Of a stretch of DNA of 64,000 bases, positions 30,342 through 33,227 are shown one piece after another; the stretch's first letter is position 1; each line of letters begins with the position of its first letter. The translations under genes and the position numbers were made by a program. Below the pieces are notes generated by a model. It had not been told where the DNA came from and did no database searches. It was given only the letters and a program-made list of their open reading frames with translations. Source of the DNA: a virus. The stretch lies in the IMG/VR virus record IMGVR_UViG_3300045988_137103; one strand, 5' to 3'.

Positions 30342-30770
30342 ATGGAATCAGAAGAAGCAAAGTCCAAACAAAAAGAAAGGCAGCGAGAATACTATCTTAA
30401 GCATCGTGAAAAGTTGCTCGCCTATTCTCGCAAATACATCCAGGAGCATCCCGAAAAGATGAAGCTGTATAAGGAAAATGCTGCCAAGAAACGAGCCAAC
30501 GGCACTGGATATTATCAGAGATACTATCAGCGCAACAAAGAAAAATTGCTGGAAAAATCTAAGAGCTGGAGACAGAATCACCCCGAAAAGGTGAAGGAGT
30601 ACCAGCGCAGATACTATCAGAAGAAAAGAGCAGCAGCAAAGAAAGAGAAGAAGATAATGCTGAATCCAGATATAGATAAGGCAAAATCCCTCTTCCGTGA
30701 TCCTTCCAAGGCTGTTCATCTACAGTGGCTCCTGGAGCACAACAAAATTAAGCAATATGAATCATGCTAG
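30342..30770 (+). CDS. Basic repeat protein (142 aa) with three YY..K/N.EK...HPEK units
   Basis: The units are REYYLKHREKLLAYSRKYIQEHPEK, YYQRYYQRNKEKLLEKSKSWRQNHPEK and VKEYQRRYYQKKR. Confidence 0.65.
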   Translation: MESEEAKSKQKERQREYYLKHREKLLAYSRKYIQEHPEKMKLYKENAAKKRANGTGYYQRYYQRNKEKLLEKSKSWRQNHPEKVKEYQRRYYQKKRAAAKKEKKIMLNPDIDKAKSLFRDPSKAVHLQWLLEHNKIKQYESC

Positions 30771-31803
30771 TTTATTCAGCGGAATCGGTGGTGCAGAGGT
30801 CGCGGCATCCATGATGGGATGGCAGAACCTCTTCCATTGCGAGATACAAGAGTCCCCTCGCAAGGTGCTCCAATACTGGTTCCCAAATTCAGAAAGTTAT
30901 GAAGACATTACCAAAACAGACTTCCATCAGTGGCAGGGAAAAGTCGATATTCTCACCGGAGGATTCCCATGCCAGCCTTTTAGCGTTGCAGGCAGAAGAA
31001 AGGGAGAAGACGATCACCGCTATCTCTGGCCACAGATGCTACGAGCGATTCGGGAGATTAAGCCCACTTGGGTCGTTGGTGAAAACGTTATTGGAATCAG
31101 AACTATGGTGGAGCCCGGTCAAGAGATTAAAATGGGACGCACAGACGATTTCTTCGAAGAGAATTACATATATCGAGAGGAAAGCAGGTTCACACTCGAA
31201 AAAATCTGCCAAGAACTTGAAGCAGCAGGATATTCCGTCCAACCGCTTAATATTCCAGCTTGCAGTGTCGGAGCACCCCACAGAAGAGAACGCGTCTGGA
31301 TTGTTGCCCACCGTACAGACTCAGGGGCTGAAACGCTGCAACAAGAAAGGAAAAACAGAGTTCATGCCTCTAGATCTCCTTCCTACGCCAACAGCAACAG
31401 ACAAAGGAAGTGGAAGAATAAACAGAAGTCCTTCTCCCGGTGCTGCAGAACGTCCAACACTGGCCCTTGCCGCAAAACAAGGACTCTTGCCGACTCCTTG
31501 CGCCATAGAAGCAACAAAGTTCACCAAGACCTTCAACCCAAATTCTCAGATGGGGAAAAGTCTTACGGCATTGGCAAACAGCGGAATATTACCTTCTCGG
31601 TCCCAAAAGAAGATTTCTGGAAAGACTTCCCAACTCAATCCCCTCTATGTCGAAGAAATGATGGGATTCCCTTTGATGTGGACCGCCTTACCATTTCTTT
31701 CCCAAAGTGGCGAACAGAATCAATAAAGGCTTATGGCAACGCTTGGGTACCACAAGTTGCTTATGAGATATTCCGGGCAATAGAGGCAGAAGAAAAGAAA
31801 TAA
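30757..31803 (+). CDS. Stand-alone C5 cytosine DNA methyltransferase
   Basis: Motifs in one frame: I LFSGIGG, IV GGFPCQPFS, VI WVVGENV, VIII PHRRERVWIV, X YGNAWVPQV. The start is taken at MNHASLF (30757). The segment at about 31320-31620 translates to basic low-complexity sequence in this frame. Confidence 0.85.
   Translation: MNHASLFSGIGGAEVAASMMGWQNLFHCEIQESPRKVLQYWFPNSESYEDITKTDFHQWQGKVDILTGGFPCQPFSVAGRRKGEDDHRYLWPQMLRAIREIKPTWVVGENVIGIRTMVEPGQEIKMGRTDDFFEENYIYREESRFTLEKICQELEAAGYSVQPLNIPACSVGAPHRRERVWIVAHRTDSGAETLQQERKNRVHASRSPSYANSNRQRKWKNKQKSFSRCCRTSNTGPCRKTRTLADSLRHRSNKVHQDLQPKFSDGEKSYGIGKQRNITFSVPKEDFWKDFPTQSPLCRRNDGIPFDVDRLTISFPKWRTESIKAYGNAWVPQVAYEIFRAIEAEEKK
30899..31726 (+). CDS. 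Nested +1-frame ORF (275 aa) inside the methyltransferase gene, with LLPTP repeats and an MGFPLMW motif
   Basis: Open for 828 nt entirely within 30757-31803. Encodes LLPTVQT, LLPTPTATD, LLPTPCA and LNPLYVEEMMGFPLMWT. The last resembles the RLMGFPDxW element that normally precedes motif X of C5 methyltransferases. Confidence 0.45.
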   Translation: MKTLPKQTSISGREKSIFSPEDSHASLLALQAEEREKTITAISGHRCYERFGRLSPLGSLVKTLLESELWWSPVKRLKWDAQTISSKRITYIERKAGSHSKKSAKNLKQQDIPSNRLIFQLAVSEHPTEENASGLLPTVQTQGLKRCNKKGKTEFMPLDLLPTPTATDKGSGRINRSPSPGAAERPTLALAAKQGLLPTPCAIEATKFTKTFNPNSQMGKSLTALANSGILPSRSQKKISGKTSQLNPLYVEEMMGFPLMWTALPFLSQSGEQNQ

Positions 31804-31841: not shown

Positions 31842-33227
31842 ATGAAAACAGATGGCTACATTCTTACTCCAGAGCTGCTGCAGTGGCGTTACTTTCATCG
31901 TCCGGTGGTGGTACAGGTGCTCATCTATGTGCTCCTGTCTGCCACCCACAATGAGGCTTCCGCTGCTACGCTCTCCTTACGTCTGTTGGCTGATCGGCTC
32001 CATACCTCTGTCAAGTCTATCCGCTGTGCCATCGATGTTCTCATACAGGAACGAATCATCACGAAATGCAGCTCTCCCAAAGCCTCAACAATCGTGTATG
32101 TTAACAGTTCGCATCCCCTCTCCCACTGCATCCTACCATACCAAAACCCACTTGGGGCACAGAATGGGGCACTCTTTGGGGCACAGATAGGGGCACAATC
32201 AGGGGCACAGATTTTAACTTCACAAGTTACTGATACACAAGGTTGTGCAGCATATCTTCAAGACAACAAGGGCACAGATAGGGGCACGATTAAGGGCAAA
32301 GATGGGGCACGCTCTAGGGCACACCCTAAACAAGGGGCACGCCAAAAGGCACAGTCTAGGGCACAGATTAACAATCCCGAAACCCCTTTAAATAAAGGTG
32401 ATTCCGAAGATTCTGCCGAAGTTGAGGGCACAGATAAGGGCAAGGGTAAGGGCACAGAAGTAAGAGGAAAGAAACAAATAAAAGAAAACATTTCCCCCGA
32501 ACCCCCTATAAAAGAAAACAAACAAAGAAAGGAGAAAGCCCACACCCACACACAAAAAAAAGAAAAAGAAAAAAAGTCGCAGGATCCGGAAGTTCAGTTC
32601 TCGGAAGTGCTAAGACTCTTCAATCGCCTATTCCTGGGCACGCAGGTCAAGCCAATCTCAAAGATGACTCCCGACCGCAAGAAGATGGTAGCCAAGTTTA
32701 TCTCAGACTACTCCTTCGAGGATATAGAACCAATGCTTCGCAAGGCTCTCAACTCAGATCTTCTCTCAGGGCGCAAGGATGGTGGATGCTATATCTCCTT
32801 CAACTGGATCTTCAATCCGAAGAACTACGAGGCTCTGATGGAAGGTACCTTCGACAACCCTACAGTTGCAGCCTCAGCCGGGAAGAAGCCTCAGCCTTCA
32901 AGTTCTCCACCATCTGCTCCTCCACAGCCTCAACGCGAGGAGACTAACGAGGAAATAGAAGCTCGCCTAAGAATGAAAGAAGAGCGCAAGAAGGAATTGA
33001 AGAAAGAACAGACCGAAGCCCTACGGCAGAAGTATCTAGGCTGGATAGAAGCCGCCAAGAAGAACCCGAATGGTTCCATGGCAAAGATGGTAAAAGATGC
33101 CTACAAGAATGGCACTCTAGCCAAACTGGGCATCGTCTGGAATCCATCGGTGGCAGAAGAAGAACAGTCACTGGCCGACTTGGATGATAAGACACAGAGT
33201 TATCTCCAGTCTCTCCTCGGCGACTAA
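31842..33227 (+). CDS. Putative replication initiator / replisome organiser (461 aa)
   Basis: N-terminal winged-helix-like segment (LADRLHTSVKSIRCAIDVLIQERII). Central Gly/Ala/Gln/Lys low-complexity region encoded by the iterons. The C-terminal module (ISFNWIFNPKNYEALMEG) is reminiscent of DnaD or phage O-type C-termini. Confidence 0.5.
   Translation: MKTDGYILTPELLQWRYFHRPVVVQVLIYVLLSATHNEASAATLSLRLLADRLHTSVKSIRCAIDVLIQERIITKCSSPKASTIVYVNSSHPLSHCILPYQNPLGAQNGALFGAQIGAQSGAQILTSQVTDTQGCAAYLQDNKGTDRGTIKGKDGARSRAHPKQGARQKAQSRAQINNPETPLNKGDSEDSAEVEGTDKGKGKGTEVRGKKQIKENISPEPPIKENKQRKEKAHTHTQKKEKEKKSQDPEVQFSEVLRLFNRLFLGTQVKPISKMTPDRKKMVAKFISDYSFEDIEPMLRKALNSDLLSGRKDGGCYISFNWIFNPKNYEALMEGTFDNPTVAASAGKKPQPSSSPPSAPPQPQREETNEEIEARLRMKEERKKELKKEQTEALRQKYLGWIEAAKKNPNGSMAKMVKDAYKNGTLAKLGIVWNPSVAEEEQSLADLDDKTQSYLQSLLGD
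32154..32460 (+). repeat. Iteron-like array of about 13 GGGCAC cores (consensus RGGGCACAGAT) plus variants
   Basis: Cores start at 32154, 32166, 32178, 32190, 32202, 32270, 32281, 32304, 32317, 32334, 32359, 32426 and 32450. GGGCAA and AGGCAC variants lie between them. All are within the initiator-like ORF. Confidence 0.6.

Follow-up and report, generated by a model that had tools for sequence, protein, structure and literature searches.

Two nested reading frames of a phage gene probably encode one cytosine-5 DNA methyltransferase

One gene, two open frames

How can the conserved motifs of a single cytosine-5 (C5) DNA methyltransferase come to be divided between two overlapping reading frames? 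The question is raised by a locus in IMG/VR virus record IMGVR_UViG_3300045988_137103, a stretch of 64,000 nucleotides (nt) that is referred to here, at its full length, as the window. The longer of two open reading frames (ORFs) at this locus, called alpha, is read in frame A; the other, called beta, lies wholly within alpha and is read in frame B, which is +1 to it (Table 1). A sequence-only reading of this DNA had described the coordinates of both frames, their motifs, a low-complexity stretch in alpha, LLPT repeats in beta, and the distance from the GFP element to the GNAWVP motif. All are present as it described them, with the GFP of frame B preceding the GNAWVP of frame A by about 21-24 codons. 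Three explanations had been offered without ranking: an enzyme made by two changes of frame, a split or overlapping two-subunit enzyme, and a genuinely overprinted second gene. The analysis described here supports the last two and disfavors the first.

In our judgment, alpha and beta are probably nested genes that jointly encode one C5 methyltransferase. Both frames are maintained, selection switches between them along the gene, and the internal start codon of beta is conserved.

What the two products contain

Frame A carries motifs I (FxGxG), IV (PCQ), VI (ENV), and VIII (QxRxR-like), all in order, which identifies a C5 methyltransferase. The variable region and motifs IX and X that would stand together in a single-chain enzyme do not do so here: IX is in frame B and X in frame A. 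Alpha matches the Pfam profile PF00145 with an E value of 2.8e-40, aligned only at positions 1-237 of 324, and scores 117.7 bits against TIGR00675, above the cut-off of 100.65. The C-terminal half of frame A, searched alone, has no match in Pfam, and the frame B protein has no significant match in Pfam or NCBIfam. A hybrid protein read from frame A to B and back to A (A+B+A) spans PF00145 positions 1-323 of 324, while the C terminus of beta joined to motif X of alpha scores 17.5 bits over positions 243-323, short of the cut-off of 22. When a profile of 66 beta proteins was compared with the PDB, the sole match was to residues 265-311 of M.HhaI, covering GKTRKLHPRECARVMGYPDSYKV, which is motif IX (E value of 0.077). 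Among the PHROGs, alpha matches phrog_363 (E value of 4e-71) and phrog_116, and beta matches phrog_1008 (E value of 1.7e-17). All three are labelled DNA methyltransferase; alpha-type and beta-type proteins form separate families there, with no record that they are two frames of one locus. C5 methyltransferases have an established two-domain structure, and because of it, together with the Pfam and PDB matches, alpha is predicted to be the large domain (motifs I-VIII plus X), and beta the small domain, with the variable region and motif IX.

Could beta instead be a real nested protein with a function of its own, such as DNA binding or regulation, leaving alpha alone as the methyltransferase? Its failure to match any Pfam or NCBIfam family would fit such a role, as would a conserved N-terminal extension that has no counterpart in canonical enzymes. 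We consider this unlikely, however. Alpha has neither motif IX nor a conserved variable region, its middle evolves without constraint at the protein level, and beta provides exactly the parts that alpha lacks. In addition, motifs IX and X swap frames across lineages (described below).

Which frame does selection act on?

Nucleotide diversity by codon position was calculated in 20-codon bins for 66 unique sequences, comprising the window's close relatives. Over alpha codons 1-180, diversity peaks at the wobble position of frame A. Over codons 181-300, it is the first position of frame A, the wobble position of frame B, that varies most (0.26-0.41), and the third position of frame A, the second of frame B, is the least variable in 4 of the 6 bins (0.065-0.18). 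All three positions are nearly invariant over codons 301-320, and over codons 321-349 the wobble position of frame A once more has the highest diversity.

The same switch is seen when variant alleles are classed against the consensus of the 59 genes in which both frames are intact. Changes synonymous in A and nonsynonymous in B stand to those nonsynonymous in A and synonymous in B as 39 to 8 in alpha codons 1-46, 40 to 12 in codons 48-100, 16 to 26 in codons 101-140, and 32 to 14 in codons 141-180. The numbers are then 46 to 140 in codons 187-300 and 34 to 10 in codons 323-348. Selection thus acts on frame A in the catalytic part, on frame B in the middle, and on frame A again at motif X. Together, the two measures indicate that the middle is maintained as a frame B protein and that frame A persists there only as an open frame. 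The sequence-only reading had held that its case would fall if homologues showed frame B broken by stops and frame A conserved as protein over 31320-31620. What the homologues show is the opposite: frame B is uninterrupted, and frame A is not conserved as protein over that interval.

Within the catalytic region, alpha codons 101-140 (31057-31176) have a frame B pattern. They coincide with an insertion between motifs VI and VIII, MVEPGQEIKMGRTDDFFEENYIYREESR, that is absent in a marine clade of homologues, and in beta they encode the conserved LWWSPVKRLKW hairpin region.

Chance, sequencing error, or decay?

Can two frames stay open over such a distance by chance? For each frame in turn, the protein was held fixed and synonymous codons were redrawn from the usage of the window; the gene's own codons were also permuted. 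When the frame B protein is fixed, 10.6 stops are expected in frame A over the middle region and 0 are observed (P<2e-4; P=6e-4 by permutation of the gene's own codons). With the frame A protein fixed, frame B has 0 stops in codons 20-186 against 5.7 expected, with P=8e-4 (somewhat biased, as discussed below) and only P=0.09 by permutation of its own codons. The third frame has 7 stops in the middle region and 6 in codons 20-186. Nine divergent loci give the same picture: over 115-233 middle codons, frame A has 0 stops against 4.6-14.7 expected, and frame B, from a start near alpha codon 22-81 onward, has none where 2-7 are expected and stays open through 76-175 codons upstream of the junction at which the first LLPT-type module begins. 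The layout is well beyond chance. The earlier remark that so long an out-of-frame opening was improbable is borne out by these tests and by the 59 of 66 relatives in which it is intact.

Relatives were looked for in several searches. A near-identity DNA search of GenBank phages gave no match. Searching with the hybrid A+B+A protein retrieved all-frame-A proteins of 348-349 amino acids (aa), in alpha-type clusters of 127 (P0044) and 1364 (P0052) members, and also many singletons in which the catalytic part runs on into frame B at differing points. Scans with the catalytic part as query found 69 close loci, mostly in Segatella or Prevotella phage contigs of about 60 kb. Among the 66 unique relatives, the ATG of beta is at alpha codon 48 in 61, and the third frame carries 7-32 stops; in 66 beta proteins, residues G44, L77, W79, and L121 are invariant. 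Alpha ranges from 325 to 466 aa and beta from 254 to 393 aa, the longest beta giving an overlap of about 1180 nt. The middle region differs in length by whole modules bounded by LLPTP motifs (for example in L015, L039, L045, and L062), and relatives have from 3 to at least 6 LLPTP modules; such variation may reflect changed specificity. All intact genes have lengths in multiples of three, and thus both frames stay open. Gene callers have reported 3078 beta homologues, the closest being 275 aa long and 99% identical, and beta-type ORFs appear in JGI, NCBI, and ENA data as hypothetical proteins.

These relatives dispose of the simplest explanation, namely, that two compensating sequencing or assembly indels in the window have produced the appearance of two frames. 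Its one attraction is how the single sequence looks. The same two frames recur in 59 relatives, each assembled independently, as well as in the genomes of isolated phages (Bacteroides phages BS-TP4 and BKO1-TP3 and the phages behind 48 Paenibacillus records), so error, which the earlier reading had asked to be checked in the raw reads, is excluded for practical purposes.

A second possibility is that the gene is decaying or phase variable, with frame B the ancestral frame left behind by indels and fusions of the two frames representing on/off switching. In its favor, many metagenomic alleles do fuse the catalytic part to frame B at differing points, and 7 of the 66 close relatives are such variants. 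The intact layout nonetheless prevails (59 of 66), forms large clusters (1364 and 127 members), and is common to lineages only 24-47% identical. Frame B is, moreover, currently subject to purifying selection in genes whose catalytic part is read in the other frame, and the variant junctions all differ and have no repeat tract at them. Decay or switching is therefore a very remote prospect.

The fusions deserve a description of their own. Chimeric alleles with A-to-B or A-to-B-to-A joins occur among the metagenomic proteins (P0001, P0002, P0004, P0007, P0014-16, P0024, P0029, P0033, P0036, P0037, P0041, P0054, and P0093) and among the loci (L001, L002, L013, L040, L043, L046, and L075). They are mostly singletons, and every junction is different; that of P0041 is inside the catalytic domain. 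They look like sporadic indels or assembly artifacts, picked up by gene callers because neither frame is closed. Such differing junctions also led to the rejection of fusion proteins as a third, conserved architecture.

The same layout across phyla

How far does the arrangement extend? It recurs in loci that are 24-47% identical in the catalytic part: in marine phage contigs, a Bacteroidales metagenome-assembled genome (MAG), Pseudomonadota, Rhodobacteraceae, Phaeospirillum, Omnitrophota MAGs, and contigs of phages with high G+C content. At each of these loci, frame 0 encodes the catalytic core, a low-complexity stretch, and motif X, while frame +1, starting near codon 22-81, encodes a conserved N-terminal region, WPTPxAxD modules, and LNPxWVEWLMG(Y/F)PxGWT. 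Firmicutes loci in this range of identity share the layout. Two loci are exceptions in how the motifs are split. In L008 (1141 onward), IX and X are both in frame +1 and frame 0 ends at 244 aa; in L010 (102 onward), frame 0 has both, leaving only the WPTP-type modules to +1. Motifs that move between frames in this way make sense only if the two products act together.

The N terminus of beta, which overlaps the catalytic domain, is itself widespread. An exhaustive phmmer search with its first 145 residues matched 1125 representatives of clusters at 50% identity (E<=1e-3), most of which begin at the same methionine. With beta as query, tblastn found the two Bacteroides phages and the 48 Paenibacillus phage records mentioned above; against plasmids, a proteobacterial beta found 2 records only.

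Some divergent loci have features of their own. In L084 (2343 onward), beta (407 aa) extends beyond the end of alpha (374 aa) and has extra WPTP modules past motif IX. L086 and L089 have an LLPTP or LLLTP module close to the beta N terminus (residue 6 in L086); at that place an insertion separates motifs I and IV of alpha.

Separate protein or frameshifting?

If both frames are used, are they joined during translation? Two programmed shifts of frame, the first (+1) near 31300 once motif VIII has been read and the second (-1) near 31700 once motif IX has been read, could give a single polypeptide and with it a canonical single-chain enzyme. The hybrid A+B+A protein is indeed collinear with the full Pfam model, and over 31312-31803 selection follows exactly the path from A to B to A. 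The upstream part of frame B tells a different story. Frameshifting needs open frames only near the shift sites, yet frame A is open through the middle, running stop-free for more than 130 codons beyond the first supposed site, and frame B is open far upstream.

Frame B is also conserved there as a protein. Six deeply divergent lineages were compared from motif IV to the junction, against a baseline of codons resampled under the amino acid conservation of frame A. In 14 of 15 pairs, frame B similarity lies above this baseline (z = 4.0-8.2), exceeding all 300 simulations, and this similarity beyond the shadow of frame A argues that frame B is translated well upstream of any A-to-B shift point.

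Does beta have a start of its own? In the window, its ATG at 30899 is the first start codon downstream of a frame B stop. Marine-clade genes have a frame A synonymous diversity of 0.43-0.45 up to the beta ATG but 0.11-0.30 beyond it, and AAGGAG or AAGGAA with 7-nt spacing precedes the ATG in 11 of 11 loci. The lysine at this Shine-Dalgarno site is AAG in all 11, although the usage of AAG over this part of the genes is 22%, and the alpha residue that supplies the "AT" switches among Y, H, and N while the ATG is kept. L086 has AGGAG-N9-ATG, and GGGAGG-N12-ATG occurs in the Paenibacillus phages, where frame B has a stop two codons upstream.

The two supposed shift sites point the same way. At the first, the junction is constrained in both readings, VWIVAH in A and GLLPT or GLWPT in B. 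Across lineages (35 unique junctions), the alanine is GCC in 27 and the histidine is CAC in 30; the alpha residue after the histidine varies among S, T, and A (xCC) while the beta residue stays proline, giving a beta reading of G(L/S)(L/W)PT. The point of return to frame A differs: there is none in L008, it lies before IX in L010, and it lies after IX in the window. Frameshifting would need a different second site for each lineage, or none, whereas two subunits need no such site at all. Finally, no slippery heptamer and no slow or hungry codon motif was found at 31290-31330 or 31680-31730, neither supposed site has a repeat tract, and the longest homopolymer within the gene is A6. Two programmed frame changes are, on this evidence, rather improbable.

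A model for the enzyme and its weak points

How would the two proteins work together? Alpha would be the S-adenosylmethionine (AdoMet)-binding, catalytic large domain, made up of motifs I-VIII, a spacer of about 100 residues, a pre-X segment, and motif X; the spacer would be constrained only to be free of stops, keeping motif X attached. Beta would start at its own ATG at 30899 and contribute the N-terminal extension, the LLPTP-type modules in the place of the target recognition domain, and motif IX, thereby forming the small domain. The two may assemble noncovalently, as the alpha and beta chains of M.EcoHK31I do, and the resulting enzyme might methylate phage DNA during replication; the gene adjoins one for a replication initiator.

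Several points weigh against nested subunits. (i) Separate translation of beta, its assembly with alpha, and the activity of the enzyme are all predictions from sequence. (ii) It is unusual for an enzyme to contain an unconstrained spacer of 100-250 residues. (iii) The motif IX matches given above, by E value and by Pfam score, are both weak. (iv) AlphaFold2 predictions have low confidence, both for beta (66 sequences; predicted local distance difference test [pLDDT] score of 53 and predicted template modeling score of 0.21), whose residues 1-48 are left unstructured, and for a natural fusion, P0016 (31 sequences; pLDDT of 44). (v) In the window's own clade, the frame A pattern alone is seen over roughly the first 50 codons of beta (40:12). 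(vi) The region of the beta extension was chosen after it had been seen to be open, which somewhat biases the stop-free test for it and inflates the P values from the nine divergent loci. (vii) Bacteroidota are not expected to have Shine-Dalgarno sequences, so a ribosome-binding site offers no check on the start at 30899 in this clade, and that start is a predicted one. (viii) Low-level frameshifting alongside separate translation is possible.

Features and gene neighborhood

The features of the locus and the ORFs on either side of it are collected in Table 1.

Table 1. Positions of the alpha and beta ORFs, their parts, and neighboring ORFs in the window
Feature	Position	Strand	Remarks
Alpha ORF (frame A)	30757-31803	+	348 aa, ATG at 30757 to stop at 31803; catalytic core, spacer, motif X
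Beta ORF (frame B, +1 to alpha)	30899-31726	+	275 aa, wholly nested in alpha; overlap of 828 nt
Alpha catalytic region (motifs I, IV, VI, VIII)	30775-31311	+	Frame A wobble position is the most variable
Motif I, FSGIGG	30775-30792	+	Frame A
Motif IV, GGFPCQPFS	30958-30984	+	Frame A
Motif VI, GENV	31078-31089	+	Frame A
Motif VIII, PHRRERVWIVAH	31276-31311	+	Frame A
Alpha spacer (codons 186-284)	31312-31608	+	Basic, low complexity; stop-free, not conserved as protein
Motif X, GNAWVP	31735-31752	+	Frame A; begins 9 nt past the beta stop
Predicted beta start, A-rich leader and ATG	30871-30901	+	ATG made by tAT-Gaa of alpha Tyr48-Glu49
Beta N-terminal extension (aa 1-134)	30899-31300	+	Overlaps alpha catalytic region; conserved SGHRC, LWWSPVKRLKW, RLIFQL
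Double-constrained junction	31294-31315	+	Alpha VWIVAH (end of motif VIII) is, in +1, beta SGLLPT(V), the first LLPT module
Beta variable region, presumed target recognition	31301-31633	+	LLPTV at 31301, LLPTP at 31376 and 31484, ILPS at 31586
Beta motif IX, LNPLYVEEMMGFPLMWT	31634-31684	+	Overlaps alpha pre-X segment FPTQSPLCRRNDGIPFDVDRLTISF; hardly any variation at the three codon positions
Upstream ORF	30342-30770	+	142 aa, very basic; internal YYxxxxEKxxEY-type repeats; overlaps alpha start by 14 nt
Opposite-strand ORF	30348-30719	-	123 codons, open over nearly the entire upstream ORF
Downstream ORF	31842-33227	+	461 aa; low-complexity GAQxGAxxGAQ stretch

The product of the downstream ORF matches replication initiator and DnaD-like families (phrog_345; E value of 5e-13). 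The methyltransferase locus sits in a replication module, and a related Bacteroides phage has the same neighborhood. This context fits an orphan phage methyltransferase that would act on replicating phage DNA. Several short ORFs, in other frames and on the other strand, are open at the low-complexity stretch of the downstream gene. The upstream ORF has weak PHROG matches only (HNH endonuclease; E value of 2e-4).

Significance

What would follow for phage biology more broadly? We lean, by a modest measure, toward a very large, cross-phylum family of cytosine methyltransferases of phages and mobile elements, encoded by two fully nested genes on the same strand that overlap by about 700-1200 nt. 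The recognition subunit would be read in +1 across the catalytic domain, and what annotations treat as the "variable region" of these enzymes would be a meaningless spacer. The estimate of family size is based on the clusters, at least 1125 at 50% identity, that match the N terminus of beta. What is notable is the length of the overlap, the selection on both frames, and the spread across phyla; the kind of arrangement is known, if obscure, and this is a new variation on it.

If the family is real, its gene overlap would be among the longest and oldest conserved ones known in prokaryotic viruses, and a separate, modular subunit would determine its specificity. Nested genes that are long, share a strand, and have selection on both frames are rare and contested in bacteria and phages; here, comparative support is replicated across phyla and there is biochemical precedent. 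Thousands of database entries would be incomplete, with alpha given a spurious low-complexity "variable region" and beta listed as hypothetical. Predictions of phage methyltransferase specificity, from REBASE-style inference to epigenetic host linking in gut viromes, would need to take beta into account. A naturally split methyltransferase with a modular recognition subunit would also be of practical interest for targeted-methylation tools.

Comparison with known systems

Is there a precedent for such an enzyme? In the literature consulted, only two natural two-polypeptide C5 methyltransferases are named, M.AquI and M.EcoHK31I (PMC3404938). In a literature search that was itself incomplete, these two were the only ones found to bear on nested C5 methyltransferase genes, and no general cross-phylum account was found. 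The sequence-only reading had pointed to M.AquI. Its idea of two subunits stands, and M.EcoHK31I, with beta nested out of frame inside alpha, is the closer precedent.

M.AquI (CYCGRG) is split within the variable region (PMC3404938). The first subunit of this type takes I-VIII with part of that region, the second its remainder with IX and X. In the Pseudomonadota locus L008, one frame has I-VIII and the other carries the variable region, IX, and X, a division of motifs like that of M.AquI. The window's locus, in contrast, keeps motif X on alpha with I-VIII and has beta fully nested, which sets it apart from the M.AquI type.

Paenibacillus larvae phages (Fernvirus) offer a precedent of another sort. 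For Shelly and Leyra, GenBank annotates both nested coding sequences, one of them with the note "g55 internal gene," and so the annotators clearly saw the nested ORF. As in the window, an alpha (345 aa) contains a nested beta (234 aa) with WPTP modules and LNPEWVECLMGFPIGWT; this beta is about 26% identical to that of the window. The paper on these phages lists the genes, and nesting is not discussed in the passages of it that were available (PMC6070908).

M.EcoHK31I, from Escherichia coli, recognizes YGGCCR; its alpha chain has motifs I-VIII plus X, together with the predicted recognition domain, and its beta chain has IX (PMC3404938). Both chains are needed for activity, with the N-terminal part of beta partly dispensable (PMC2836561, PMC3404938), and the enzyme has been used for targeted-methylation tools (PMC2836561). 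Its beta gene lies wholly inside the alpha gene in another frame, just as 30899-31726 lies within 30757-31803 here, and the motifs are shared out in the same way, I-VIII and X to alpha and IX to beta, the window's IX match being weak (E value of 0.077; 17.5 bits). Where do the two part? The recognition domain of M.EcoHK31I is assigned to alpha, and its beta has 176 aa. In the window, by contrast, the sole conserved variable region is on beta, which has 275 aa and up to 393 aa in relatives, beta begins well upstream, over the catalytic region, and alpha has an unconstrained middle. Overall, compared by layout and motif distribution rather than by sequence, the window's gene would appear to work most like M.EcoHK31I.

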